This document shows positions 17,667 through 61,637 of a stretch of DNA of 64,000 nucleotides, piece after piece. The stretch comes from a virus (taxonomy: Duplodnaviria; Caudoviricetes), in IMG/VR virus record IMGVR_UViG_3300002839_000006, positions 17,703-81,702 of that record, one strand, 5' to 3'. A program made the position numbers and the translations under genes. The stretch's first letter is position 1. Every line of letters starts with the position of its first letter. The notes under the pieces were generated by a model. It ran no database searches, was not told the DNA's origin, and saw nothing but the letters and a program-made list of their open reading frames with translations.

Positions 17667-17755
17667 TTCATTTTCTCCTTTTTCTTTTGTCTTGTCCTAC
17701 AGGGAAAATCCTGACTCGGCGATTGATTATTAATTAGATACAGTTCTATTATATA

Positions 17756-43327: not shown

Positions 43328-43681
43328 TTAATTATTAAAAGGTGTTATTGATATGTCAAGGTAGAATAGTTTATCTTCGTGGAAATTCCAATACCCTCCA
43401 CGATTAAGATTTATTACATAAGAGTGCCTGTTTCCTGGTAATATACTATACATATATTGTTCTTTTGTATTACGAACTAATCCTGTAAGATGAAGATCTA
43501 AAGCCTGTATTAATTCAAATTCATCTTTAGGATCATCAACCCATGGGATAGCAATTAAATCAAGGTCTCTATTCATACTACCATGTAGTACTAAATTATA
43601 CCCAAATTCTTTAGCTATTATTTTTATATCTTCAAAAATAAAAGAATAGAAGCTTGGTTTTACATGAATTGGTTTATCCAT
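43328..43681 (-). CDS. Minimal nucleotidyltransferase-like protein
   Basis: GY.L..HGS..RDLDLIA.PW. Confidence 0.65.
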   Translation of the reverse strand: MDKPIHVKPSFYSFIFEDIKIIAKEFGYNLVLHGSMNRDLDLIAIPWVDDPKDEFELIQALDLHLTGLVRNTKEQYMYSILPGNRHSYVINLNRGGYWNFHEDKLFYLDISITPFNN

Positions 43682-45699
43682 TAGTTAATATATTGTATAG
43701 AAGATACTCTGTTCTCTTTGGTGACTTTCAGCACCTGACATCCATATTGGTTATGTGGGACATGAGTAGTAATAAGGACATTCTTCTTTAATTCTAAATA
43801 GGAGTCTGTTAGTAATTTAATTCCAAGTCCATCTGACGAGTTAAAAATTTCGTCCAATGAAAGGAATGATAAGCCACCATATTTATGTGTAGAATTAATA
43901 GCGTGAGAAACACAATCTATCATAGCAGCTTCTAAGCGATCGTGCTCACCTCCAGAGAATGTACCAATACTATGCGCTTCGCCATCCCTTATAACTGTAG
44001 CAGTAATCTTATCTGAAAGAGTACCGTCACTTTTAATTTTATATCCCGACAGTTCTACTCTCAAATCCGAGTGTATATCGAATAGGAACTTGTTGGCATA
44101 ACCTTCGAGGATTTTGAGTGTCTTAGCACTGAGGAACTGGATAAACTCTTTAAAGGTAAAGCTCCACTTCTTAATCTCAAATATTTCATCATTGATAATA
44201 GAAGACTCTGTTTCAATTTGCTTGATTTTATTGTTACACGAAATTATATTCTCTTTGATAGAAGCAATTCGTGCTTTGTTATCAAACTTATCAACAGTTA
44301 CAGTTACTTTAGAAAGTTCAAGTTCTTCGATCTTAGCTTTGCAGTCTTTAATATAAGACTTGGTAGTCTCATTCTTATCTTTACATAGTTGTATGTTATT
44401 CTCCAGTGACCCTTTTTCTCTTTCCAGATTAATAATAGAATTTTGGATGTTTCTCTTCTGAGTTCTCAATTCATTCTCTTCAGTTTCTATAACCACCCTG
44501 TCCCTACGTAAATTCCTTAGTGTAGGATCAAAAGCTTCAATAGTTACCTTAACTTCAGCCAATGACTTATTAAGTTCCTCTAAGATAGCCGAAGTCTGTT
44601 TATGAGCTACTTTCTCCTCTTCAATATCAATGTCTTCTTTACCTACAATAAACTGGTGTTGACACTTAGGACATGTAACTGATCCTCTGATGTTGAGATC
44701 AATCTCGGTAAGTATCTGGGAGACTTCTGAATAGTCCTTAGATAAGGTTGATTTCTTTAGTTCATACTTCTCCTTCTCTTCCTTAGTTTGGACAACCTTA
44801 TCATCAACCGCTTTAAACCTTGTTTCGAAGTCAGTGGTATCCTTGTTTAGCTTCTGGATTTCCAGGTTGGCTTTCTGTAGGGATGATAATTGATCGAGTA
44901 ACTTGTCTTCGTAAGTAGTGATGAGAGTAATATTGTCTAATACTTTCTTATCAAAATTACCGATTTTTTCACCTTCATCAATTATTAAATAGTCAATTCT
45001 TCTAATTTCATTCTCAACTAATTCTTTCTTATCAGTGGTAAGTTCAATATTGAGATTTTCTTCATGGACTTTAATCATACCAAATATCTCATTCTTCTCA
45101 TCGTTCTTTTTTAGTAACACTTTCTCTTTCTCTTCAGTCTCTTTGATGATGTCTTTATCAATACCATCTATAATAGAAGAGTTGGAAAAGCGACCTATTA
45201 GCTGGACAAGTTGAGTATTAGAAGCATCAAAGAATGATTTATACTTGAACTTAGAAAGTATGAAGAAGTTTTGTAAGTCCTCTGCAGAAATACCTATCCA
45301 ATCTATGATACTTTTATCGATTTCTCTTACCATATTATCCTCAAAAGCATATTTGATTATGCCATTAATAGATAGTTGAGATTGACCACCATTCTTGACA
45401 GAAATGATTCTCTCAATAAGCATGGTTTCTTTACGTATAGGACAGTGAATAGTAAGAGAAACATTTGATTGAGTCTCTCCCCACATGACAAGTTCTTTAT
45501 CATTAGCTTTCTTGGAAGTGGTATGTAAGAGGCACATCTCAATGACTGACACCATTACGGACTTCCCGCTCCCGTTGGATTCCTGCCCGGTATCACTCTT
45601 ATTCTCACCAAGTATAAGCACAGGCTCTCCGCTTAGGAAAGTGTATTCAAGTTCTTGAAAGGACTGGAAGTTTTTGGCTGTTATCGAAATTAATTCCAT
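43681..45699 (-). CDS. SbcC/Rad50/gp46-like SMC ATPase
   Basis: Walker A G.N...ESNGSGKS, coiled coil with CPKC zinc hook, signature FSGGE, Walker B LSLDE. Confidence 0.92.
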   Translation of the reverse strand: MELISITAKNFQSFQELEYTFLSGEPVLILGENKSDTGQESNGSGKSVMVSVIEMCLLHTTSKKANDKELVMWGETQSNVSLTIHCPIRKETMLIERIISVKNGGQSQLSINGIIKYAFEDNMVREIDKSIIDWIGISAEDLQNFFILSKFKYKSFFDASNTQLVQLIGRFSNSSIIDGIDKDIIKETEEKEKVLLKKNDEKNEIFGMIKVHEENLNIELTTDKKELVENEIRRIDYLIIDEGEKIGNFDKKVLDNITLITTYEDKLLDQLSSLQKANLEIQKLNKDTTDFETRFKAVDDKVVQTKEEKEKYELKKSTLSKDYSEVSQILTEIDLNIRGSVTCPKCQHQFIVGKEDIDIEEEKVAHKQTSAILEELNKSLAEVKVTIEAFDPTLRNLRRDRVVIETEENELRTQKRNIQNSIINLEREKGSLENNIQLCKDKNETTKSYIKDCKAKIEELELSKVTVTVDKFDNKARIASIKENIISCNNKIKQIETESSIINDEIFEIKKWSFTFKEFIQFLSAKTLKILEGYANKFLFDIHSDLRVELSGYKIKSDGTLSDKITATVIRDGEAHSIGTFSGGEHDRLEAAMIDCVSHAINSTHKYGGLSFLSLDEIFNSSDGLGIKLLTDSYLELKKNVLITTHVPHNQYGCQVLKVTKENRVSSIQYIN

Positions 45700-46464
45700 T
45701 TATATTTGATTTAAAGGATTATTAGGCGATTTGCATCTAGGACCATGATATCTTATCATATTACTAGCGTTTTTGCTTTCAAGCCCACAGTATTCACAAG
45801 TTATAACTTTTCTTCTGGTCCAAGCCTCTTTATAGCGCTGACACGCTTCGGGGCTCTTCTTTGTCCCTTTGAGAGGGTTACCAAATTCTTCAAATCTTTT
45901 TCTTTTAGATTCTTTAATCTGATCCATTTTTTCTTTTGAATGCGTTTTGCCAAAGAAAGGATTATTTTCGCCAGCAAATCTTCCCGTCATGGCATTATGT
46001 TGTTTCAACTTTGACTCTTCTGATCTGGTTGTTCCAAAGAGTGGGTTGTCTTTACCTAGTTTATGAACACCATACATGGGATTTAATTCTCCAGTTCTTC
46101 CAAACATTGGATTATTTTCCCCTGAAATATCTGGACGGTTCAATTTCATCTTTTCTTTAGAATCTTCTCTATGTTTATACCCAACTTTCTGTCCAGTGCC
46201 TTTGATATGGACATTATAACCCACTAAAGGATTAGTGCAATCTAATTCAACTTGCCAAAATTTTTCTTTACTCGATAAATCTTCATAATTGCAATATTCT
46301 AATACAATGCGGACAAAATTTTCTTTCCCTAGATCTTTAATTGCTTTTTTAAATTTAGCTCCACCGCCTAAGTATTTATCGTTTAGATTATTGGTAGAAT
46401 GATGACCAACGTATATCAACCCATTTATTAAACAAGTTACTTTATAAATAAAATGATATTTCAT
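45700..46464 (-). CDS. Free-standing GIY-YIG homing endonuclease with NUMOD3 repeats
   Basis: FIYKVT..ING.IYVG.H...YLG.G; repeated GENNP(M/F)FG..(H/R)S.E.K; C-terminal C..C...H..C. Confidence 0.88.
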
Positions 46465-47459
46465 AATTCGAGTTGTTTTTTTACTCTAACTTCTATTTCA
46501 GATAATAGTTCGTCGTTGTCATTCAAAAGATCTTTAACTTTTTCAGATCCCTGACCCAACTTGATATCTCCCTCAGCAGAGGGATAACTAAACCAACTTC
46601 CAGATTTTTTTATAATTGTTAATTCCACAGCTAAGTCAATTAACTCTGACAATCTATCAATCCCTTTTGAAAATACAATATCAAATTCTGCAGTTCTAAG
46701 TGGTGGAGCTACTTTGTTTTTTACAACTTTAACTCTAACATGATTAGAAACTGATTCGTCGCCAATCTTGTTTGTAGCGAGTCTTCTTATATCAAGTCTC
46801 TGAGAAGCATAGAACTTTAATGCGTTTCCACCTGTTGTGACTTCTCCAGAACCCCATGTAATTCCGATATTTTGACGAATCTGATTTATAAAGATAACTA
46901 TAGTGTGTGTCTTATTAACACAACCTACAAGCTTTCTCATTGCCTGTCCCATCAGTCTTGCATGAAGACCCATCTTAGAGTCCCCCATCTCCCCATCAAT
47001 CTCAGCTTTGGGAACTAATGCTGCTACTGAATCAATAACAATAATGTCAATCTCACCAGTTCTTATCAGGGTCTCTGTAATTTCAAGTGCCTGCTCTCCA
47101 TTATCTGGTTGGCAGAATAGGAATGCTTCCTTTGAAAGATCAACTCCTAAGTTCTTAGCATACACTTTATCAAAAGCATTTTCGGCATCAATATAGGCAG
47201 CTACGCCTCCATTCTTATGCACTTCTGCAATAGCATGTAGAGCTAAAGTTGACTTTCCACTTGATTCTGGACCATAGATTTCAATGATTCTTCCCTTTGG
47301 GAAACCTCCGCCCAGAGCATAATCAAGTCCCAAGGAGCCAGTAGAAGAAAATTCAACTCCTTCTACATTCTCTTCAAAGTTTACGATACTTCCTCGTCCG
47401 AATTTCTTCTCAATACTGTCAATAGCAGTAGAGATTATTTTCTGTGCTTTTTCATCCAT
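46461..47459 (-). CDS. recA: Recombinase RecA
   Basis: [58 protein letters not shown]. Confidence 0.97.
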
Positions 47460-51232: not shown

Positions 51233-51949
51233 TTAATAAGTTATATCGTCAAATAAGATAGAGATTCTATTCTGGAACTCTTTCAATAGAGGTCTCATCA
51301 GTTCTTGCATCTGTGGATGAGCAGCGTTGGCAGTTCTTTGTCTGAATATTTCTCTCCACTCCCGGATATTGGCTGACATATTAATCTCAGTCTTTAGAGA
51401 GTTAGGTAATACTGCTCTAGCCTGCTGAGGAGTCCAGCCAGTATTAACCATCATTTTATAAGAACTTTCACATTGATCTAATGCAACTAAAAATGAATTA
51501 AGCTTAGTGTCTTCTTTCATTTGTTCATTTGACACCATTATCTCCATTTTTGATACGTCGCAATAGTCGCCATCCCACCAGACATATTGTCCTTCTGGAA
51601 TATTTAGCCAACATGGAATGATAAAAGTAACTTCCCCATTACTGAACTTATCATCTGTATAATTGCAGAATCTTGTGCTTTCTTGAGCAAAAGAAGCTAA
51701 TCTATGCCGAACTAATTCATGTGATACGCCTCTGTCGCAGACAAATTTGACTGTAATCATTCCACCGAATTCAAGCATGGCATTATGTCCTCTAGCCATT
51801 AAAACATTCTTGATAAGTTTTTCAGCAGAACCAGGAGCTATTCTATCTTCTGACTTATAACAGGTTCTTGCTGCTAGTTCAATTTGATTCAGAATCTGTT
51901 CTCCATTAATAGGAGTGATGATCTCGAAATATGGTTTTATTAGTCTCAT
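51233..51949 (-). CDS. thyX: Flavin-dependent thymidylate synthase
   Basis: GH.A.LE, DRGVSHELVRHR.ASFAQESTR, QQAR.VLP, N.REW..I..QR, AHPQM. Confidence 0.93.
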   Translation of the reverse strand: MRLIKPYFEIITPINGEQILNQIELAARTCYKSEDRIAPGSAEKLIKNVLMARGHNAMLEFGGMITVKFVCDRGVSHELVRHRLASFAQESTRFCNYTDDKFSNGEVTFIIPCWLNIPEGQYVWWDGDYCDVSKMEIMVSNEQMKEDTKLNSFLVALDQCESSYKMMVNTGWTPQQARAVLPNSLKTEINMSANIREWREIFRQRTANAAHPQMQELMRPLLKEFQNRISILFDDITY

Positions 51950-52275
51950 TCTTTTATGTAGTAGATTGGTTTATTATAAACATCTGCTAGAGTCAATTCT
52001 CCAGCAATTCCTTGACTATTTCTAACTCTCTCCTCGCCCTGATTCTTCATTATGACTACGGCCAATTGGTCGCACCACTCGATAAATGATTCATCGAAAG
52101 TCTTCCAGTACTGCCATCCTTTGGGAAGATCTCCCGATAAAGCAATGGGATGAGTGTGCGAGATGGGAGAGAAGACGATGTGACCCTCTAGCATGAGTTC
52201 TGCTGCGATCTTATTGGCTACTGAGAAGCTCTCCTCTTCGAAGCCACTATAGGGTATTGCTAGATAGATCTTCAT
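51946..52275 (-). CDS. DUF1937 / nucleoside-deoxyribosyltransferase-like protein
   Basis: IYLA.PYS...A..L...G..VFSPISH.H...W...D..F...CD...S.G...E. Confidence 0.75.
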   Translation of the reverse strand: MKIYLAIPYSGFEEESFSVANKIAAELMLEGHIVFSPISHTHPIALSGDLPKGWQYWKTFDESFIEWCDQLAVVIMKNQGEERVRNSQGIAGELTLADVYNKPIYYIKE

Positions 52276-52595
52276 ATTCCCTCTTTCTTTGATTTGATAT
52301 AGCCAGCCATCAATATCGAGTAGTTTGCGAGGTCCAACAATGTGTCCTCGATCTTCTCGTCTGCTACGTTAAGCACGCCCTGCTGGACGAACGAATTGAC
52401 TCGAGACACCTTATCCATCATCCGAGTCAGGAAGCCCTGTTCTGCGGACGCTATACCGATATTCTCGACCAGCTTGAAATTGGCGAAACAGTCGTCCTTG
52501 CTGAAGCCAGCATAGTCGTGATTCTTGGACGCCACGATAGATTTGAGTTTATCTAAACACTCTTGGTGATAGGTTAGAAATTCTTGATTTGTCAT
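52272..52595 (-). CDS. DUF1599 / nucleotide-modification-associated domain 1 protein
   Basis: KNHDY...NF...RM.DK..R...E..EDTL.DLANY.I. Confidence 0.8.
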   Translation of the reverse strand: MTNQEFLTYHQECLDKLKSIVASKNHDYAGFSKDDCFANFKLVENIGIASAEQGFLTRMMDKVSRVNSFVQQGVLNVADEKIEDTLLDLANYSILMAGYIKSKKEGI

Positions 52596-52599
52596 ATAT

Positions 52600-55500
52600 T
52601 TATTTTAAGATTACTAATTCGCTGTTGTCCCAGAACTTGCATGCGTTCTCTTTCTTGTAGGTGTCGAGTTTGATCATCCCTGTGAGCAGTAGGATGTTGC
52701 CCTCCTGTCCTATCAGCTCGATGCCAGATTTTGTGAGCTGCTGATACTGGCAGGGAAATATAGACACCCAGATGAATGTGTAGTTGCTCTCAATCCTGAT
52801 CGAGCAGTATTTGCCACTCTTCTTGGATGTCCGCTCAATCACCTCTACTATGTAGCCGCCTATCGAGTAGTAGATGTTACTTAGCGACTCTGACTGCCAC
52901 TCATCCTGATCGAGATACTTTCCATCTGTCAGATACTTGTCGCACATAGTCTTGTAGTCGAAGAATGCTATGCCAGTCAGCCTCTTCTGCCTGAGGTCCC
53001 ACCACCAGTCATCGGAGATGTCCTTCTCGCTCAGCGTCATGAGATCCTTCTCGGCATCTATCTTAGTCTTCTTCTCAGTCCGGTAGAAGTCTATCAGTCG
53101 CTTGCGCTTGAGAGAGTCCTCTATCTCCTCGACCTTGTCGAATGCACCTGAGAATATGAGATTCTCTACATGAGTCTTGTTGACCTTGCTGCCCTTGAAA
53201 GTGTGCCTGCTCAGGAACTCCTCGAAGCTGAAATATGGTCCATTCTCATCCCTATCTTTCATGATCTGCTCAGCAGCAACTCCACCGACTGACTTGATGC
53301 TCGTGAGCGCCCAGTAGATGGTGTTCTTCTTGAAGTTCGAAGTCATATCGAACAGCGACTCATTGATGTCGGGTGGAGATATCTTTATGGCTCCAGTGGC
53401 ATGGATCTCAGATATGAAATCAGCTACCAATTCATCTTTAGCAAACTTGAATGCTGTGGTCCAGAATTCGATTGGGTGATTGACCTTAAACCACTGACTA
53501 ATATACCCAGTTATCGCATAGGCAGCCGCATGGCTGGCATTAAACCCGTAACCCGCAAACGCTTCTAGCTTATCCCAGATCTTTTCTGCAACACTTGCTT
53601 CGCATCCATTTGCTACAGCTCCCAAAACAAATTTATCATGATAGATATAGAACTGATCTCTAAACTGTTTCTTTCCCCTGCCAAGCATCACTTTTCTCAT
53701 CATGTCTGCCTCAACTAAAGTGAATCCGCCAAGTACCTGAGCAGCCCTCATTGTCTGTTCTTGGTAGATATATAGACCGTAAGTCTTTTTAGTCACACTT
53801 TCAAGCATATAGTCGTATTCAGGCTCTTTCATACCCCATTTAATCATCACAAAGTCATTGTGAGCATTAGATTTCATGGCGCCAGGACGATATAATGCAT
53901 TGGTTGCGCTGAGCTCTTCCATCGAATCAGGCTTCAATTCTTTAGTATATTTCTTCAGTCCCTGAGTCCCGAACTGGAACACATCAGAGTTCCACCCCTT
54001 TCCAAAGTACCTATATACAGCATCGTCATCTAATGGTATCTTCTTGAAGTCGATCTTTATCCCCTTGTTCTCCTCTATGAGCTTTATGCAGCTGGCGAAC
54101 TTATCCAATTGTTGAATACCTAATATATCTTCTTTTAAGAATCCTGCTTTGTCCAGCTGAATGCCCTCCCACTCGCTGACGAGCAGCTCCTCTCCATCTT
54201 TAGATAGGACCTTCTTGACTGGGAACCAGTGATAGATGTCCTTGTCTGCTGGAGTGATGATGGTGGCGCATGCATGGACTGATCCAGATCTAGGCTGCAT
54301 CAGACACAATTTAGCGTCGTGAACTATGTCTGGATTGCGCATCACAAAGTCCTTCAGTTTCTGAGACTTAGATGCAAGATGGAATATCTCAGACCAATCG
54401 GTGCCGTCCTTCTCTCCCTCTCCGAGTATGCTTGTCATCATCTTGACCTCCTGAATAGGAATGTTGCTACGTTTTGCAAGGTCTGTGAATATCATCTTCA
54501 GTTTCAGGTTGCCGTATGTCCCTACAGAGCACACCTGATCGTATCCGAATCTCTGCTCCATATAGTGCTTTACCTCATCCCTTCTCAGTCCCTCAAAGTC
54601 TGAGTCAATGTCAGGGATTGATTTCTTGACCCTATTCTCATTCAAGAACCTCTCGAACAGGAGGTCGTACTCGAATGGATCGATGTTGGTTATCCCCAAT
54701 AGGTATGCGATGAGACTTCCAGCAGATGATCCTCGGCCATATCCGACTAATATGTTCTGTTTGCCGCACCAGTCTATGATATCCCATAGGATGAGGAAGT
54801 AATCAATCAGATTCTGGCCCTTCATGATGACTGAATACTCTATCTCAATCCTGTCCAGATATTTCTCTCTGTCCTCGTCCGAGCATTTCTCATCCATCCC
54901 CTCGCCTATGAGGCCCCAGAATAGGTCTATCTTATCCTTATACTTCGTTAACTGCTCCTCTGTTAGTACATAGTCAGGCAGATAGAAGTGCTCTGTATCG
55001 ATCTGGAAGTTGCAGATCTCAGACAGTGTGTTGGCATTCTTGATGGCTTTTGATGCTATATCGTAGAACGACTCATCCTCTGTAGAGAATAACAGCTCTA
55101 ACTCTGCCAGATAGTCATCGGCGTCTTTGAAATACTGGTTGGATGACTCATACTCCCTGACTCCAGATATCCCATTCAGCGTCTTCTTTATGTGGCTGTG
55201 ATCCCTATCTAGGTAGAATGCATCGCATATGAATATCGGCTTCAGGCTGCCATCTCTGACAAACGCCTTTAGATTCAGAAGATACTCCTGATCTTTGGAC
55301 TGATCATTATATATGACAGTATCCAGCTGATAGTACTTCATGTAGCTCCTCATCCTGCCCAATTTATCATATGATCCACTCTTTGGATCTACGATCACTA
55401 TCACATCCTCCAAGAGCTCTATGAACCTATCCTCGTATATGAACTTGTTGTTGATGACATTGACCTCTTTGTTGATCATCAGTAGGTTGGTCCAGCCAGT

Positions 55501-56040
55501 CTCTGACTTTGCGAAGCACTTGATATCCTGCTTGTAATCTTCGCCCTTCCTGACGACAGTGTAAGTCGCTCCAAGTATCGGCTTGATATCGAGGTTCTTG
55601 CACTCAATCTGAAACTTGAGAGCTCCAGCCAATGTGTTCTTCTCTATGATGCCGAGAGATTTGACTCCCAAGAACTTTGCTTTAGCGCACCAGTCCTCAT
55701 AGATTCTAGAGCCATTGAGTATCTCATACGCCCCTCTGACTCCAAGAAAAGCATCAGTCTCTATCTCTCTCTTCGACTGGCCAATATATCTGAGCTCTTT
55801 GAATGTCGGTTTATCCTTGTCTGCTTTGTTTATGTAGTAGTAGTCCCCACCGAATCTAAATGCATAATTGTCGCAGTCTGTATCATCTGCTTGTAGATGC
55901 AGGTCATCATCGAATAGCCTGCCAGTGGAGTCTGGCCAGATGAACTCGAAAGTCTGATCTGCTATCTTGAACTTGCTCTTGATCTCGAGAGTCTCATAGT
56001 CCAGCTTGTTGTCCTCTAGATGTCTTATCAGTTTCTCCAT
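52600..56040 (-). CDS. dnaE: DNA polymerase III alpha subunit (phage DnaE)
   Basis: GRGSSAGSLIAYLLGIT..DP, FERFLN, PDIDSDF, K.DILG, GVFQF-like VFQFG, IYQEQ, YGFN.SHA.AY; start moved to MEKLIRH (56040). Confidence 0.95.
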   Translation of the reverse strand: MEKLIRHLEDNKLDYETLEIKSKFKIADQTFEFIWPDSTGRLFDDDLHLQADDTDCDNYAFRFGGDYYYINKADKDKPTFKELRYIGQSKREIETDAFLGVRGAYEILNGSRIYEDWCAKAKFLGVKSLGIIEKNTLAGALKFQIECKNLDIKPILGATYTVVRKGEDYKQDIKCFAKSETGWTNLLMINKEVNVINNKFIYEDRFIELLEDVIVIVDPKSGSYDKLGRMRSYMKYYQLDTVIYNDQSKDQEYLLNLKAFVRDGSLKPIFICDAFYLDRDHSHIKKTLNGISGVREYESSNQYFKDADDYLAELELLFSTEDESFYDIASKAIKNANTLSEICNFQIDTEHFYLPDYVLTEEQLTKYKDKIDLFWGLIGEGMDEKCSDEDREKYLDRIEIEYSVIMKGQNLIDYFLILWDIIDWCGKQNILVGYGRGSSAGSLIAYLLGITNIDPFEYDLLFERFLNENRVKKSIPDIDSDFEGLRRDEVKHYMEQRFGYDQVCSVGTYGNLKLKMIFTDLAKRSNIPIQEVKMMTSILGEGEKDGTDWSEIFHLASKSQKLKDFVMRNPDIVHDAKLCLMQPRSGSVHACATIITPADKDIYHWFPVKKVLSKDGEELLVSEWEGIQLDKAGFLKEDILGIQQLDKFASCIKLIEENKGIKIDFKKIPLDDDAVYRYFGKGWNSDVFQFGTQGLKKYTKELKPDSMEELSATNALYRPGAMKSNAHNDFVMIKWGMKEPEYDYMLESVTKKTYGLYIYQEQTMRAAQVLGGFTLVEADMMRKVMLGRGKKQFRDQFYIYHDKFVLGAVANGCEASVAEKIWDKLEAFAGYGFNASHAAAYAITGYISQWFKVNHPIEFWTTAFKFAKDELVADFISEIHATGAIKISPPDINESLFDMTSNFKKNTIYWALTSIKSVGGVAAEQIMKDRDENGPYFSFEEFLSRHTFKGSKVNKTHVENLIFSGAFDKVEEIEDSLKRKRLIDFYRTEKKTKIDAEKDLMTLSEKDISDDWWWDLRQKRLTGIAFFDYKTMCDKYLTDGKYLDQDEWQSESLSNIYYSIGGYIVEVIERTSKKSGKYCSIRIESNYTFIWVSIFPCQYQQLTKSGIELIGQEGNILLLTGMIKLDTYKKENACKFWDNSELVILK

Positions 56041-56041
56041 C

Positions 56042-56899
56042 CTATAGATATAGATGAAAGTTTCCAACAAATACTGCAACTCGATAATCATCAACGCCCT
56101 CAATAGCTTTTATGACTTCGAGAGACATGAGAGCGAATATCTCGCAGTCCATCTCCACTTTATCAATGTCCTGAGACCTCTGGTAGACTGTGGTGAATAG
56201 GATGTCGTCTTTGATCTGGAACTGAATAGATACTGTGCAGTTTGGCAATGGATCGCTCTGATCGAACTGAATGATCGCCTGTCGACTCGTATTGTCTCTC
56301 TCAAGTCGCTTTATGGCGTCTCTTAGAGCAGTTCTATACATGATCAACTTATCCTTCACATAGGGAAGTCTATCATCTGTGATGCGCCAGAATACGTTGG
56401 AGAAGAAATGATACGAGTGGTTCAGTATCTCTTTGACTCTACAACCAACAGTGACTCTCTCGACTCCGCATAATTCTAGATACTTTCTCATTCCCTCTAC
56501 GAACACATCTCCCGTCTCAATCTTTGAGAGATAGGATGAGATCTCTTTGTCTTCTGGCTTGACATCATTATTCCTGCATATGAAGACATCTGCTGATTCG
56601 CAAGCATAGCTCCCTAGTCCAGGATACCCTATGACTGAGTCCTTCATAACATCTACATCTTCAGTGAAAGATGCTACGAAAGCTTTTATTCTCTTTGCCT
56701 TCACATTCTGCATCCCCAAACTCTCAATCTCTCCTGCCAGAGTATTCTCATCTATGTCCCTTAAGTCATTGAGAGTAGGAAACGTCCTGAAGAACTCTCT
56801 CATCATCTTCTTGACTTGCACTCCAGTAGTCTGGTTGAGCAGGATGCAGCAGACGAGCATCTTCCATGGCTCGCGCCTGTATATGTCTTGTATCATCAT
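56042..56899 (-). CDS. Fusion of an MBD4-like HhH-GPD glycosylase (N) and a compact thymidylate-synthase-like domain (C)
   Basis: N: PWKMLVCCILLNQT...FP...LG....KAK.I...PGLG.YA..S..F...PED. C: SRQAII...PNCT...QFQI...VYQRSQD...D...GNFHLY. Confidence 0.8.
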   Translation of the reverse strand: MMIQDIYRREPWKMLVCCILLNQTTGVQVKKMMREFFRTFPTLNDLRDIDENTLAGEIESLGMQNVKAKRIKAFVASFTEDVDVMKDSVIGYPGLGSYACESADVFICRNNDVKPEDKEISSYLSKIETGDVFVEGMRKYLELCGVERVTVGCRVKEILNHSYHFFSNVFWRITDDRLPYVKDKLIMYRTALRDAIKRLERDNTSRQAIIQFDQSDPLPNCTVSIQFQIKDDILFTTVYQRSQDIDKVEMDCEIFALMSLEVIKAIEGVDDYRVAVFVGNFHLYL

Positions 56900-57780
56900 A
56901 TCTTATCACCTCCTATGTAGTATGAGCCCTTATACTTCTCGCAGTCGAGCATGAGCTCCTGCTTAGTCTTATCGTGTAATGTCCACTCATCTGTATATCC
57001 CTCGATAGCGTGATCCTCATCTCGTTTGAAGATGCAGTTTGCGGCGTACCCCTTTCTAAGATGCAGGCACTTGCCATTGTCATCGTGCGACACGAAATAG
57101 GACGCCATGTATGGGAATTTATCTACTATCAGATTCCTCATCTGCTCAGCCATGGCATTCATCTCTGGGTGCTCCTCTTGGGAGTCGGTACGCTTGCCAT
57201 AGATCGACAGTAGGGTGGGCAGAGCGACTGCTACGTATATCCAAGAAGGTATCGTCTTAGGGAGGCAGAACCTTGCGTCAGTGTTTGCTATCTCTCCAGA
57301 GTCGAGCATGTCGGCGTACAGCCTCTTTCCCTGTTGGACCCATTCTTCGTATCGTTTGAGCATGTCGGGTAGCTTGGTGAATGCCCTCGGGACAAGCACA
57401 TCTGAGTGCCTAAAATCCTTCACAGCCTGTGACTGCTGCATGTATGCTATGCCTATCCTGTTCCTGACTAGGGCGTGCGTTCCGTGCAGGGAGAGTCCCT
57501 TGACTATGAAGCAGAACTGAGGGTGCTCCATGCCCTGGCCGAGTATCTTTCCCGAGAATAGGTCATTGACCACTTCGTCCCTGTCTTCTGGAGTAGCATT
57601 GTCGTAGAAGTTCTCAAACCAAGATGCCTGGCTCATGTTCACGAATACTCGTTTCAATCTCTCTGGATCTGGCCAGTCGATCATGTCCACTTGGACTGCA
57701 GATAGGTTGTCGATGAACTTAGTCTTCGGTATCTCTCCTTGTTTAATCTCAAACATTCTCTTTATCTTCTCTATTTTCAT
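56896..57780 (-). CDS. Divergent ThyX-like flavoprotein
   Basis: MEH..F.F...G.S...TH.LVRNR.G..Y.QQSQA, DAR.CLP, R......PE...MA..M: ThyX layout with the RHR and S.R motifs altered. Confidence 0.75.
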   Translation of the reverse strand: MKIEKIKRMFEIKQGEIPKTKFIDNLSAVQVDMIDWPDPERLKRVFVNMSQASWFENFYDNATPEDRDEVVNDLFSGKILGQGMEHPQFCFIVKGLSLHGTHALVRNRIGIAYMQQSQAVKDFRHSDVLVPRAFTKLPDMLKRYEEWVQQGKRLYADMLDSGEIANTDARFCLPKTIPSWIYVAVALPTLLSIYGKRTDSQEEHPEMNAMAEQMRNLIVDKFPYMASYFVSHDDNGKCLHLRKGYAANCIFKRDEDHAIEGYTDEWTLHDKTKQELMLDCEKYKGSYYIGGDKI

Positions 57781-57782
57781 TT

Positions 57783-59024
57783 TTACTGCTGTTTTTGTTT
57801 CTCATATCTCTCTGTGACTTTCTTTGATTTCATCTCGAATAACTCAATGAACTTCTGGGGAGTTATGTCCCACATCAGGCAGATGTTGACGAAGTACTTG
57901 AACGCATCTATGAGCTCTTCGGATAATAGATCTATGTCCACCGTCTTCTTCGGCTTGTGCTGCTTGTAGTTAATCTCATTCATCACTTCGGATAGCTCTA
58001 TGATCATGGCTGTGAAGTAGTCCTTCGTGAGCGATTCCCTCTGATGAGTCTCGGTCAGGCTGTTGAAGTCCACGAAATTGGAAGTGAATCTCTTCTGCAT
58101 GTTCCAGATGTTGGACATATCGAATGATGATAGAGCCTTCTCAATGACATCCTGCTGCTTGAATGAGTGGTCCCAAGTGGCGAACCTGCCCACAAACTCC
58201 ACTCTGTTAGGAGGTATGTTATTGCTGTCAGAGAATATGAGTCCATCGATCTCGTGATAGAAGTCCAACACTGCTGCTCCAGTAGGGAGATGCTCTACGC
58301 AGTCCTCTTGAGATAGCCTCCCTGAGAACTCATATAGGAATGCGTCAGACTGGTCCCTCCTACGCTTTGATATTCTGGTGTACTTGACATCTGCGTCCAC
58401 AAAATAAGCGAGGTCGAACTTCTCTTTCGAGAGGCAATCAGGTAGCTTATCGCACAATAGGAAGGTTATCGTCTCAGATTTCAGCTCCTCGGTCCTCTGC
58501 TGGTAGTACATGCCCCAGAATGCTCTGGCGCTGATAGTCGAGACCAGCTTGTCATATTTGTATCGAGTGTCGTGAGTGATGATCTCTGTCTCAGTTATCT
58601 TGATGACCGTCTCATTTATGACCTCTACTCCCTCTCTCAGTCTGGATAGGATGTCCTGGAACGATACTTCGAAGACTGAGATGAAGTTGTCGCTGGTGCT
58701 GAGCGAGAGGTCTTTAGCGTCGAACTCAGGGTCGTTGAGCTTCTTCGATATGAACTTCTTCTTGTCCTCTATCGTGAGCTTTGTCAATATCTTGTCAGAC
58801 TTGACATATTTTATGAGCTGCGTCTTCTTTACTATTGGGAGCTTGAGGTCCTCGAGCAGCCTCTCGGTGAATGGAGTGGCGTGTAGGTAGAATATGTTCT
58901 CGAAGAATTTGTTGTTGAGCTTGCCCCCGATATCTGGGGATATGATCGTGAAATCTCTGTTGTAGTAAGCGTATATTAGGCCGCTTATGCCTGCGCCGAG
59001 GATATAGTTATCTCTCACTCTCAT
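57783..59024 (-). CDS. Fusion of an FAD-dependent oxidoreductase (Glf/amine-oxidase-like) and an all-alpha dUTPase/dCTPase-like domain
   Basis: N: ILGAGISGL...IGG, LVSTI, VGRFATW.H....DVI. C: ELSEV.NE..YKQHK...EELID..KY. Confidence 0.75.
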   Translation of the reverse strand: MRVRDNYILGAGISGLIYAYYNRDFTIISPDIGGKLNNKFFENIFYLHATPFTERLLEDLKLPIVKKTQLIKYVKSDKILTKLTIEDKKKFISKKLNDPEFDAKDLSLSTSDNFISVFEVSFQDILSRLREGVEVINETVIKITETEIITHDTRYKYDKLVSTISARAFWGMYYQQRTEELKSETITFLLCDKLPDCLSKEKFDLAYFVDADVKYTRISKRRRDQSDAFLYEFSGRLSQEDCVEHLPTGAAVLDFYHEIDGLIFSDSNNIPPNRVEFVGRFATWDHSFKQQDVIEKALSSFDMSNIWNMQKRFTSNFVDFNSLTETHQRESLTKDYFTAMIIELSEVMNEINYKQHKPKKTVDIDLLSEELIDAFKYFVNICLMWDITPQKFIELFEMKSKKVTERYEKQKQQ

Positions 59025-59325
59025 CTTTCAGAATCTTTGCTATTATGAATATTGCATAGTTTGCGCAATCGATGGCTGAGTCCAGAGCCACCTCTCTGTT
59101 GATTATCTGCTCTTGTCCGCTCTCCATGCTCATCTGGAGCTTGAATCGCTTCATCTTGTTGAGCACCTGATAGTAGAGGAACATATAGTCGTCTCCGAGA
59201 TAGGTGTCTCCATACTGATCTGCTCTATCTGCTCTGGTGATGAGCACTCTATCGAGAGCATCTAGGAACTCCTGGCCCAGTTTGGATGAGTCAGGAGTCA
59301 CCGTGATCTGATTTACTTCTGGCAT
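59008..59325 (-). CDS. Second DUF1599/Nmad1-like protein
   Basis: R..QYGD...NK.KR...E..LDS.ID.ANYAI. Confidence 0.65.
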   Translation of the reverse strand: MPEVNQITVTPDSSKLGQEFLDALDRVLITRADRADQYGDTYLGDDYMFLYYQVLNKMKRFKLQMSMESGQEQIINREVALDSAIDCANYAIFIIAKILKDESER

Positions 59326-60149
59326 TTAGATGCCTCTTTCATGAAGTGTCCCAAGCCCTCTACTTTGATGGACAGCCAGTACTTGCCCTTATCAGTCTTG
59401 ACAGATACAACTTTGCCCTTCAGCTCCTGATTAGAAGCCAGCTTGGAGTTCTTGGCAGATGTGAATGTCACATCATCGCCCTTGGCGAAAATACATGCAA
59501 GCATGTCATCTGACGATGCTGCAGGAGCTTTCTTGTCTTTGGCAATGTTCTTATCAGCCTCTTTCGTCTTGATGACTGGAGCGTCTGCTTTTGCGATCTT
59601 CATGGATGCTGGAGGCAGCGAGGTACGAGTAGATGTTTTTACTTCAATAGGGGCAACTTCTTGCTCTTCTACCTGTTCTACTTCCTGTTCTTCAACTGAT
59701 GGCTGCTCAAGGAGCTCAGCGAGCACTGCCTTCTTTGATTCTTTCTTTACTTCCTCAACTTGCTCCTGAGGAACTTCTTTCTTCTTCATATTGCTTTTAG
59801 ATTTTGCGTTCTTGTCCAATTCGACGTCCATAGTGTGGAACATCTTTACTTTTTCGCTTCCGTCCAGCAGAGCATACGCATACTGGTCGTCCTCGATTGA
59901 TTTGAATTTTGTAATTGTGCCAGGGAACCACTTGCCCCCTACCCTGAAATTTGCCCTGTCATCTGCTGCGATGATATCGCTGTTGCGATCAGTGTATTCA
60001 TCAGATGCTGGCGTTGCAGCCTGAGCTACTTTGATCTTCTCGATTAATTTAACTTTATCCATTATTCCTGTTTTTGTTATTCCTAATAGTGTTGCTTCTT
60101 TCCCCAACTGGATGGTGGTCATGTTTCTCAATTCTCTGTCAGTTCTCAT
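59313..60149 (-). CDS. Hypothetical protein with short N-terminal helical motif and two SH3-like domains
   Basis: LR.M...QL...A..LGI...K..LI; beta-rich domains separated by an E/K/A/P linker. Confidence 0.6.
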   Translation of the reverse strand: MRTDRELRNMTTIQLGKEATLLGITKTGIMDKVKLIEKIKVAQAATPASDEYTDRNSDIIAADDRANFRVGGKWFPGTITKFKSIEDDQYAYALLDGSEKVKMFHTMDVELDKNAKSKSNMKKKEVPQEQVEEVKKESKKAVLAELLEQPSVEEQEVEQVEEQEVAPIEVKTSTRTSLPPASMKIAKADAPVIKTKEADKNIAKDKKAPAASSDDMLACIFAKGDDVTFTSAKNSKLASNQELKGKVVSVKTDKGKYWLSIKVEGLGHFMKEASKCQK

Positions 60150-60228
60150 GGTTGATATCTTATAGTTGTGACTCTGTAAAAGTATAACATTTATACTTCT
60201 ATTTTACAAATGATATAAAATAAAAGTG

Positions 60229-60377: not shown

Positions 60378-61637
60378 TTATTTAATATCTCCATTCTTAT
60401 CCCACCCTTTATCTCCTTCAAGATTATTATCAGGAGTTTTGGTTTTAAGAATGTCTTGATATCTGATTTTGAATTTCTTTGCTACTTCTTTAGCTGCCTT
60501 GATACTGCATTGATTAGATGACATTGCAGCAAATGTTTTATAAAGAGATTTCTTACGATCTCTAAATTCCCTGTTAGCTTCTTCAAGTGAATTGTCTTCC
60601 TTCTTCTCTTCTACTGGTTTTACTTCTTCTTTCTTGGGTTCAGGCTTAGCTTTACTATCAGCTAATAATGCAATGAATCTTTTAACTCTTAAATCATTAT
60701 ATTTAACTCTCAACTCATCAATTTTATCTTTAGCTTTCACTCCTTCACTTGTCATAAAATAATCATAATCACTCTTAATATTTTTTGCTTTAAATTCTTT
60801 ATCTAATGCGTTAATTTTATTTAATAAAACAATTTCTTCCTTGGGAACTTCAACTTTGAATTCTTCTTCTTTCTTGGGTTCAGACTTAGCATACCTAGAC
60901 TGTTTTTCTTGAATTAATGAACGCAACATTTTTGAAGCTGAAGCATTAAGAATTGTATGTCTGGATATAGAAGTAAGGGTGTCTAAACGATATTTTAAAT
61001 CTCTATCTGAAAGTTCTGAAACTTTTTCATGTTCTGAATTATCTATAGAAGATATTAATTCCCTTTTCATATAAAATTCATCTTTCTCTTCTTTACTTTT
61101 CTCTTCCTTCTCATCAAACTTCTTCAGATAGTCTGGACTAAATGACTTTACTTCACCATCAGGAAGTTTAACTTTAATAAAAGTAGGTTGACTAATCAAA
61201 TCTGTTTTCTCTTCCCCAACTACTTCTAATGTTTTTCCTTTTAAATCAGATAAAGACACTAGATTAATATCATCGCCTAATTTAACCTTATCTCCAACTT
61301 TAAAATCATATGTAGGTTTCTCTTCAGGAGCAGTTCTAGCAGCCCAATCAATTTTCTTAGGTTCTTCTTTCTTTTCTTCAGTCTTAGGTGTTTCAGGATG
61401 ATCTTTGTCACCTTTCTTAACTCTTACCCAGTCTTTATGGCCATCGCCAGTGTCTGTCATCTTCTTCCATGTCCCGGCTGAGTTCACGTGGATCGTCCCG
61501 ATGGGAGATTTCTTAGCCTTCTCGATATCAGTCTCTACTCTCTTCACAAGATCGGGAGTGGCCTCACTGCCATAAAAAGATTTTAGTATCTCTTTCTGTT
61601 GTTCTTGTGCTTTGCGGATGTCGTCTTCTATGCTCAT
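60378..61637 (-). CDS. Head-associated family protein 4
   Basis: DIEKAKKSPIGTIHVNSAGTWKKMTDTGDGHKDWVRVK; KOW/SH3-like domain; EPKKEE linkers. Confidence 0.7.
   Translation of the reverse strand: MSIEDDIRKAQEQQKEILKSFYGSEATPDLVKRVETDIEKAKKSPIGTIHVNSAGTWKKMTDTGDGHKDWVRVKKGDKDHPETPKTEEKKEEPKKIDWAARTAPEEKPTYDFKVGDKVKLGDDINLVSLSDLKGKTLEVVGEEKTDLISQPTFIKVKLPDGEVKSFSPDYLKKFDEKEEKSKEEKDEFYMKRELISSIDNSEHEKVSELSDRDLKYRLDTLTSISRHTILNASASKMLRSLIQEKQSRYAKSEPKKEEEFKVEVPKEEIVLLNKINALDKEFKAKNIKSDYDYFMTSEGVKAKDKIDELRVKYNDLRVKRFIALLADSKAKPEPKKEEVKPVEEKKEDNSLEEANREFRDRKKSLYKTFAAMSSNQCSIKAAKEVAKKFKIRYQDILKTKTPDNNLEGDKGWDKNGDIK

Follow-up and report, generated by a model that had tools for sequence, protein, structure and literature searches.

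A phage fusion of an MBD4-type glycosylase domain to a compact thymidylate-synthase-like domain, and its candidate role in making modified deoxycytidine

Members of the thymidylate synthase (TS) family that carry Asp at the position of ThyA Asn177 select deoxycytidine monophosphate (dCMP), as is known for N177D mutants, T4 gp42 and MilA (restated in PMC13326640). Some phage TS homologs use flavin in place of folate to hydroxylate dCMP, such as AfhB of phage HY126 (PDB 9iqu and 9iqc), and the products of these enzymes are glycosylated in DNA (PMC13326640). In phages with C5-modified pyrimidines such as SP-15 and YerA41, one finds a uracil-DNA glycosylase (UDG) fused to a family-A DNA polymerase, wherein uracil excision is tied to replication (PMC13697223). 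Here we describe a gene, P0001, that fuses an MBD4-type glycosylase domain to a compact TS-like domain. The gene resides in a 64,000-nucleotide stretch of DNA (hereafter called the window) from an uncultivated phage of the Caudoviricetes, which corresponds to positions 17,703 to 81,702 of IMG/VR record IMGVR_UViG_3300002839_000006. The source record is 81.7 kb long with an estimated completeness of 74%, and matching DNA is present in contigs of 2016 peat metagenomes.

A reading made earlier from the sequence alone proposed that this single polypeptide makes a 5-substituted dCMP and also repairs its deamination product. The domain layout, the MBD4-type active site, the Cys nucleophile and the Asp residue of that proposal are upheld by our analysis, and the product and the target base are what we infer from them. 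The evidence is consistent with the fusion acting as a bifunctional enzyme in a pathway that modifies pyrimidines before replication and yields modified deoxycytidine, a reading in which our confidence is about evenly balanced.

Two domains with conserved catalytic residues

The fusion gene and its parts are as follows.

56042..56899, minus strand: the whole fusion gene P0001, encoding 285 amino acids (aa), with its stop codon at 56042-56044
56525..56899, minus strand: MBD4-type HhH-GPD glycosylase domain, aa 1-125 (Pfam, PDB profile and Foldseek)
56549..56551, minus strand: D117 codon, for the Asp predicted to be catalytic in the glycosylase (alignment to MBD4 and family conservation)
56045..56524, minus strand: compact TS-like domain, aa 126-285 (160 aa), equivalent to approximately ThyA 1-35 plus approximately 110-210, without the folate-binding segments
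56237..56239, minus strand: codon of C221, the equivalent of the ThyA Cys146 nucleophile, kept in 66/66 family sequences
56147..56149, minus strand: D251 codon; the residue occupies the specificity position of ThyA Asn177 and is kept in 67/68 family sequences

The two-domain layout is borne out by Pfam, by family profiles, by an AlphaFold2 model of the whole fusion (predicted local distance difference test score, pLDDT, 96.9; predicted template modeling score, pTM, 0.92) and by fold searches, and the bounds that had been given for the open reading frame (ORF) are exact. A structural comparison with ThyA, T4 gp42 and MBD4, which the sequence-only reading had proposed as a check, superposes both domains on their expected families. 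Approximately 18 full-length homologs of the fusion exist (46-59% identity). The same residues are kept in these homologs and in 69 non-identical TS-like sequences, and thus chance is excluded as an explanation.

The N-terminal portion was said to follow the layout of MBD4, including the catalytic Asp of a PED motif, and this is confirmed. Pfam HhH-GPD (PF00730) matches aa 16-109 (2.4e-10, 41.1 bits, cut-off 26.2), and a search of the PDB with the family profile recovers MBD4 glycosylase-domain chains over aa 3-125 with an E value of 2.7e-17. Foldseek with the AlphaFold2 model likewise retrieves MBD4 chains (TM 0.77-0.79, root-mean-square deviation (rmsd) 2.0 Å over 124-125 residues, 25-26% identity). 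The Asp residue of the PEDKEI motif aligns with the catalytic Asp of MBD4, which is the residue mutated in PDB entry 4evv. Further residues were mapped by hand from the profile alignment, using mouse/human numbering counted from the catalytic Asp, and conservation was counted among 33 non-identical fused domains.

Q4: MBD4 Gln449 (base pocket), kept in 29/29 fused domains
Q23: MBD4 Arg468 (finger), with Gln in 20, Arg in 9 and Lys in 3 fused domains
M63: MBD4 Leu508 (wedge), with Leu, Met or Phe across the fused domains
Y98: MBD4 Tyr540 (base pocket), with 30 Tyr and 3 Phe across the fused domains
D117: MBD4 Asp560 (catalytic), kept in 32/33 fused domains

This is the pattern of residue conservation expected of a working glycosylase, as judged from the aligned sequences. 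The domain thus shares with the glycosylase domain of MBD4 (PDB 4e9e and 4ew0) the equivalents of the catalytic Asp, Gln449, Tyr540 and Leu508. Unlike MBD4, the phage protein is fused to a nucleotide-metabolism domain, lacks the methyl-CpG-binding domain and begins directly with the glycosylase domain. The Arg468 finger, which in MBD4 occupies the space vacated by the flipped base, is absent from the window protein, where Gln23 takes its place. Endonuclease III uses a Gln residue as its plug, and so this substitution is no argument against activity.

The glycosylase is a true functional partner of the TS-like core, and the pairing recurs. We compared gene neighborhoods from assemblies over 42 loci (designated by L numbers) with local hidden Markov models (HMMs). 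The MBD4-like fusion is found in the window phage, including the independent contigs L008 and L009, and in L001, L003, L006, L010, L012, L019 and L024. At L005 (8001-9041), the TS-like core has instead been fused independently to a C-terminal family-4-like UDG, and this protein (P0151) is encoded by a gene that likewise follows a ThyX-like gene and lies near DnaE. The UDG portion of P0151 is matched by Pfam UDG (9.5e-15) and by PDB entry 4zbx (1.8e-6). In L007, a UDG gene stands directly after a stand-alone TS-like gene. The recruitment of two unrelated glycosylase folds to the same TS-like partner argues that excision of a uracil-type base is the selected function of the glycosylase. The arrangement follows a logic like that of the UDG-polymerase fusions of SP-15 and YerA41, in that uracil excision is physically tied to the machinery of replication or precursor synthesis (PMC13697223). 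It differs from them in that the glycosylase is attached to a pyrimidine-modifying enzyme, is of the MBD4 type (family-4 UDG in P0151) and is accompanied by polymerases of the DnaE or PolB type.

As an alternative, the sequence-only reading had suggested for the HhH domain not repair by a glycosylase but base modification by a transferase, of the aGPT-Pplase or amino-acid:DNA-transferase type. A nearby FAD (flavin adenine dinucleotide) domain of the amine-oxidase type recalls the gp46/gp47 pair of phage PaMx11 (PMC11472151), and the replacement of the Arg468 finger by Gln in the window protein would also be in keeping with this idea. The resemblance of gp46 to glycosylases is slight (Z of approximately 6 and only approximately 10% identity; PMC11472151), and is far weaker than the likeness of the HhH domain to MBD4 described above, with its 2.7e-17 profile match, 25-26% identity and rmsd of 2.0 Å. 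Conservation extends to the catalytic Asp and to the Gln and Tyr of the base pocket, another lineage uses a UDG-fold partner instead, and the fusion has no Pfam match to aGPT-Pplase at E <= 1. The 5-hydroxymethyluracil (5-hmU) DNA kinase family has no match among the neighbor genes scanned, which are a subset of the ORFs of a genome that is 74% complete. We therefore regard a transferase role as very improbable.

The C-terminal 160 aa were said to keep the PNC, YQRSQD and GNFHLY motifs in a domain much shorter than ThyA, which proved correct: C221 resides in the first motif, R241, S242 and D244 in the second, and H282 in the third. Pfam Thymidylat_synt (PF00303) matches aa 192-284 to profile positions 112-211 of 266 (1.5e-5, 24.8 bits, cut-off 24.3), and PHROGs thymidylate-synthase families match the same C-terminal stretch. 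In a profile search against TS chains of the PDB, the best match has an E value of 6e-10, and by sequence only ThyA 110-209 is aligned. The domain modeled alone with AlphaFold2 (pLDDT 96.6) can be superposed with TS-family chains at Z values of 15.3-16.5 (VIA), with 150-158 of its 160 residues aligned. Selected structural alignments are as follows.

Phage HY126 dCMP hydroxylase AfhB (9iqu): Z 16.5, rmsd 2.1 Å, 157 residues
CMP hydroxymethylase MilA: Z 16.3
L. casei TS: Z 16.2
E. coli ThyA: Z 15.4, 154 residues within ThyA 1-210

AfhB is the top structural neighbor, though tied with MilA and the classical TS proteins. As modeled, the domain is a TS core in which the N-terminal helix and hairpin are combined with ThyA approximately 110-210, and the protein terminates at the His207/Tyr209 motif.

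Residues of the active site were counted in the 69 non-identical TS-like sequences, some of which are only approximately 25% identical. In addition to C221 and D251, these are the conserved equivalents of ThyA residues.

R241: ThyA Arg166, 65/68
S242: ThyA Ser167, 66/68
D244: ThyA Asp169, 65/68
H282: ThyA His207, 65/66
R206: ThyA Arg126' (the Arg residue contributed by the dimer partner), 66/67

The sequence-only reading had placed an Asp residue at the Asn177 position if a one-residue gap was allowed. The Asp is confirmed, and the gap concerns only the window sequence and its closest relatives, as the profile of the compact family puts D251 on the Asn177 column without a gap. An Asp residue at this position therefore points to dCMP.

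The domain has thus in common with T4 gp42 and ThyA (PF00303) the core of the fold, with gp42 chains matched both by Foldseek and by HMM, as well as the equivalents of the Cys nucleophile, Arg166, Ser167, Asp169 and His207, and it has Asp for Asn177 as does gp42. Those enzymes are 246-264 aa in length, whereas the compact domain has 160 aa and no recognizable folate site, always has a ThyX-like gene beside it and often carries a fused glycosylase. The flavin-dependent 5-hydroxy-dCMP synthases (HY126 AfhB, RB69 gp48 and DLP3 gp80) offer the best structural match, in a tie with other TS chains, and carry the N177D change whose equivalent is present here. However, they are 217-238 aa long and bind flavin themselves. 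They also carry D169N and L143E, whereas the compact family keeps Asp244 and has mostly Leu, with some Lys, Glu and Phe, at position 218, which corresponds to position 143 of those enzymes. The best TS-type NCBIfam model is the short archaeal thymidylate synthase TIGR03283 (201 positions), which is also a shortened TS. Scores of the window protein (2.4e-4, 20.7 bits) and of P0151 (2.6e-8, 33.6 bits) fall far short of the cut-off of 174.55. Unlike that family, the compact proteins are shorter still and are restricted to phages. We conclude that they form a separate family, of which there are many stand-alone members of approximately 155-190 aa.

Four additional features (E157, Y180, K184 and an Arg residue at position 230) are newly conserved and specific to this family, and thus the aligned sequences suggest that the active site has been rebuilt rather than decayed. 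This finding bears on whether the TS-like domain might be a catalytically dead nucleotide binder that senses dCMP or deoxyuridine monophosphate (dUMP), or that tethers the glycosylase to a nucleotide-synthesis complex. Such a role would suit a domain that has lost Glu58, Tyr94 and its folate-binding parts and whose Pfam score barely clears the cut-off. However, the Cys residue is invariant and the Arg, Ser, Asp and His residues are nearly so in sequences that have diverged to approximately 25% identity, and the newly conserved residues suggest a remodeled active site. We consider a dead domain improbable.

A conserved module of nucleotide-metabolism genes

The gene linkage of the fusion is also conserved. 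Genes in a fixed order encode an Nmad1-like protein, an FAD oxidase fused to an all-alpha nucleoside triphosphate (NTP) pyrophosphatase, a ThyX-like protein and the TS-like protein. The TS-like gene resides just downstream of a true ThyX-like gene in 23 of approximately 24 distinct loci with enough flanking sequence, the exception being L025. Genes near the fusion in the window are the following.

59008..59325, minus strand: Nmad1-like (DUF1599-like) small protein, the first module gene (Pfam and synteny)
57783..59024, minus strand: 413-aa protein that joins an amine-oxidase/PPO-like FAD Rossmann domain to an all-alpha NTP pyrophosphatase of the dUTPase_2/MazG-like kind
56896..57780, minus strand: divergent ThyX-like gene, 294 aa (Pfam, alignment and synteny)
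52600..56040, minus strand: DnaE-type replicative polymerase, directly downstream of the fusion; its ATG at 56038-56040 is the gene-caller start in L008
52272..52595, minus strand: second Nmad1 (DUF1599) gene
51946-52275, minus strand: DUF1937 (nucleoside deoxyribosyltransferase-like) gene
51233-51949, minus strand: canonical ThyX

As read from the sequence, the upstream ThyX-like gene and the fusion share the letters ATGA, in which the TGA of the former and the ATG of the latter overlap; the two genes are translationally coupled. The DnaE gene begins 1 nucleotide past the fusion stop codon.

Within the region, conservation is highest for the ThyX-like protein, at 76-83% identity among related phages compared with 51-58% for the fusion and DnaE. 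The motifs of this protein are altered (RHR to RNR, and SxR to SQA with loss of the Arg residue), the canonical insertion is deleted and an N-terminal extension has been added. A C-terminal extension of approximately 70 aa carries conserved C238, H240, C249, H257 and H269, and these Cys and His residues may form a metal site. Complex prediction for the ThyX-like protein and the TS-like domain gave a score of 0.00, which is below the mark and speaks neither for nor against binding. Canonical ThyX co-resides with the ThyX-like protein in the window and in L004, and therefore thymidine monophosphate (dTMP) is apparently still made.

The fusion of the FAD and NTP-pyrophosphatase domains (37-63% identity) is kept in all module-bearing loci. 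Its FAD part resembles amine oxidases, protoporphyrinogen oxidases and UGM, a fold assignment that rests on Atlas structure leads, and a profile search of the PDB gives weak matches to small MazG-like chains only. Stand-alone viral relatives of the FAD part also exist, at 250-314 aa.

Among the loci checked, DnaE follows as the next large gene in the window, L001, L003, L004 and L005, and the family-B polymerase PolB takes this place in L023, L027, L028, L029, L033 and L042. The modules that stand directly upstream of PolB come from other phage lineages, mostly from aquatic and groundwater sources. In L007, L023 and L033, the ThyX-like and TS-like genes are separated by a gene for a small dTMP-kinase-like P-loop kinase. 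Some relatives carry sugar genes (TAGT in L004, an NDP-sugar epimerase/dehydratase in L001 and L030, and GT2/GT1 in L007), which hint at a hydroxylated product that can be glycosylated in some lineages.

Several other features of these loci were observed. The module of L007 (2481-16312 of a 135-kb contig of GCA_022837635.1) is distant, with a ThyX-like protein of 35% identity, and resides in a large nucleotide-metabolism island that includes genes for a Tmk-like kinase, UDG, GT2, GT1, an APH-type kinase, NDK, three NUDIX proteins, Ham1, an HD protein and Dam-type methylases. In the window, a 419-aa ORF without a Pfam match (60378-61637, minus strand) stands where the relative L003 encodes a trimeric dUTPase together with a small ORF. 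The DnaE gene of L003 (10856-16373) is split into ORFs of 520 and 934 aa around a 349-aa ORF without a family match; the second piece has a weak intein-splicing match, and the split may reflect the insertion of an intein or a homing element. A GIY-YIG/NUMOD3 homing-endonuclease-like gene (45700-46464, minus strand) is situated in the window between RecA (46461-47459) and a gene for a 672-aa protein (43681-45699).

The module context has the hallmarks of a pre-replicative nucleotide-pool pathway. This bears on the idea that the TS-like domain works on pyrimidines in DNA, with the glycosylase fold providing DNA binding and base flipping, and not on the nucleotide pool. Loss of the ThyA segment at approximately 35-110 and of the C-terminus, along with the equivalents of Arg21 and Arg127, would leave the site open to a polynucleotide, and the domain has been fused repeatedly to DNA-binding, base-flipping partners. 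However, no TS-fold enzyme is known to act on DNA. Most members of the family are stand-alone proteins of 155-190 aa without a DNA-binding domain, and the NTP pyrophosphatase and, in some loci, kinase-like genes for deoxynucleoside monophosphates are hallmarks of action at the level of the pool. Furthermore, His207 of ThyA contacts a free 3'-OH, and its equivalent, His282, is retained. For these reasons, we consider action on DNA quite improbable, slightly more so than a dead domain.

A proposed route to modified deoxycytidine and its rivals

Direct support exists for the folds, for the conservation of catalytic residues, for the linkage of the genes and for the alternative fusion to a glycosylase. 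From these we infer the substrate and the product (5-hydroxymethyl-, 5-hydroxy- or 5-methyl-deoxycytidine), as well as cooperation with flavoproteins and a role in repair, for a pathway that would proceed as follows. The all-alpha pyrophosphatase would make dCMP from deoxycytidine triphosphate (dCTP), thereby depleting dCTP as in T-even phages. The TS-like core most likely binds dCMP through Asp251 in place of Asn177, with Arg241, Ser242 and His282 as ligands and Arg206 supplied by the dimer partner, and Cys221 would attack C6 to render C5 nucleophilic. As no folate site is present, the core could not act like gp42 on its own. The sequence-only reading, in which one polypeptide makes the 5-substituted dCMP, is thus not borne out as it stands: with the folate-binding segments missing, the domain cannot be a self-sufficient enzyme that depends on methylenetetrahydrofolate in the manner of gp42. 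Because the TS-like domain has no folate-binding elements, the C5 group is probably supplied by the upstream flavoproteins, namely the ThyX-like protein, the FAD-oxidase::NTP-pyrophosphatase or both, and with these obligatory neighbors a flavin-delivered electrophile is the most economical hypothesis. Modified dCMP would then be phosphorylated and used by the adjacent replicative polymerase.

The MBD4-type domain would serve in this pathway as an active monofunctional glycosylase that removes uracil, or 5-substituted uracil opposite G, arising from deamination or misincorporation. Such uracil-type bases could form via cytosine C6 adducts, which deaminate easily, or through ordinary deamination in DNA.

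A more specific and more tentative version of this proposal, which we consider possible at best, is that the divergent ThyX-like protein forms, together with the compact TS-like core, a hybrid machine for flavin-dependent C5 functionalization of dCMP. The ThyX-like protein, which has lost part of its own nucleotide-binding motif, would carry the electrophile as a flavin N5-methylene one-carbon unit or as the oxygen of a flavin hydroperoxide. The TS core would contribute the Cys nucleophile for C6 and the Asp residue for recognition of the 4-amino group, which are beyond ThyX chemistry for cytosine. Together they would functionalize C5 in a manner beyond either enzyme class alone, while the glycosylase would police the deamination by-products to which C6 adducts of cytosine are prone.

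Several findings weigh against the proposed synthesis of modified deoxycytidine by the fusion. By both sequence and structure alignments, the ThyA segment at approximately 35-110 (with Glu58, Trp80, Trp83 and Tyr94) and the C-terminal approximately 55 residues are absent; together, these missing parts constitute the folate site and its general acid/base residues. With Glu58, Tyr94, Trp80/83 and the C-terminus gone, there may be no catalysis, or a reaction unlike those known for TS. Of the four phosphate-binding arginines, Arg126' and Arg166 are kept and the other two lack conservation: a conserved equivalent of Arg21 was not found in the alignment of the TS-like family, and the Arg127 position is occupied by Gln in 49, Arg in 13 and Lys in 4 of 67 sequences. 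The family-specific Arg residue at position 230 (64/69) might compensate for these losses. The D169N signature of 5-hydroxy-dCMP synthases is absent, D244 being kept. No kinase, glycosyltransferase, dUTPase or deaminase was found in the 74%-complete record of the phage, and the dUTPase family PF00692 in particular was found nowhere in it. Family-4 UDGs act chiefly on plain uracil, and the family-4-like partner in P0151 is not a specific pointer to deaminated modified cytosine. Finally, the activity, cofactor and product of every family member are predictions, and the dCMP deaminase of L006 and the dTMP-kinase-like kinases fit a product derived from dUMP as well.

These last genes lead to a serious rival, wherein the module modifies the thymidine position. 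The ThyX-like protein would turn dUMP, formed from dCMP by deamination, into 5-substituted dUMP, and the glycosylase would clear unmodified uracil as in SP-15-like phages. The TS-like core would be auxiliary, for example carrying out a deamination of dCMP or modified dCMP that is assisted by a covalent adduct. A zinc dCMP deaminase is encoded inside the module in L006 and L013, kinases resembling dTMP kinase lie between the ThyX-like and TS-like genes at the three loci named above, and no other member of the module is as conserved as the ThyX-like protein. An association with UDG is also documented for T-modified phage genomes (PMC13697223). However, the known dUMP-specific enzymes of the TS family have Asn at the position where 67/68 compact proteins have Asp. 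The retention of canonical ThyX in the window and in L004 argues that ordinary dTMP is still needed, and the nucleotide-binding Arg residue of the SxR motif has been lost from the ThyX-like protein. On this evidence we judge a thymidine-directed pathway unlikely, both for the module and for the auxiliary role that it would assign to the TS-like core.

Distribution and significance

Searches of public collections suggest that the pathway proposed for modified deoxycytidine involves an apparently undescribed gene set. Megablast of the region against GenBank phages gave no match, and tblastn of the fusion against them gave only weak, single-domain matches; in the same records, the ThyX-like protein has one match of 24.5% and the FAD::NTP-pyrophosphatase has none. 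Thus, as these searches found no counterpart of the fusion, the ThyX-like protein or the FAD::NTP-pyrophosphatase, no GenBank phage record carries the system. Scans with the fusion alignment yielded one locus among viral contigs and, from a collection of species-representative genomes, only one 1.6-kb contig of a metagenome-assembled genome. A literature search for MBD4/TS fusions, for ThyX paralogs in DNA modification and for Nmad1/DUF1599 found nothing on the system.

In the window, the genes are set apart by their base composition.

52000..60150: island of 42-53% guanine-plus-cytosine (GC) content in a genome of approximately 33% GC, within which lie the module and DnaE as well as the second Nmad1 gene and the greater part of the DUF1937 gene

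The island also takes in a gene for a 278-aa Rho_N-like protein, and its edges are sharp. This suggests that the polymerase and modification genes were acquired together as a single unit. L003 has approximately 45% GC throughout, and L001 has approximately 34%. An assembly chimera was rejected as the cause of the island, which recurs with both boundaries in L008, a contig from an independent run. A recent import from an L003-like phage is not clearly supported, in that the island proteins are no closer to those of L003 than are the proteins of the flanks.

Phage DNA hypermodification is a source of new nucleotide chemistry, of counter-defense mechanisms and of enzymes for DNA labeling. The locus described here defines a compact TS-like family that lacks a folate site, is linked to a ThyX paralog, an FAD-oxidase::NTP-pyrophosphatase and a replicative polymerase, and has been fused recurrently to two unrelated uracil-type glycosylase folds. 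If modified deoxycytidine is indeed the product, then the module would add a third route to C5-modified cytidylate, the other two being folate-dependent hydroxymethylation and the flavin-dependent hydroxylation that full-length TS homologs carry out. It would also be the first case of ThyA-type and ThyX-type scaffolds acting in cooperation, and a natural instance in which an enzyme of precursor synthesis is physically coupled to the repair enzyme for its own error product.

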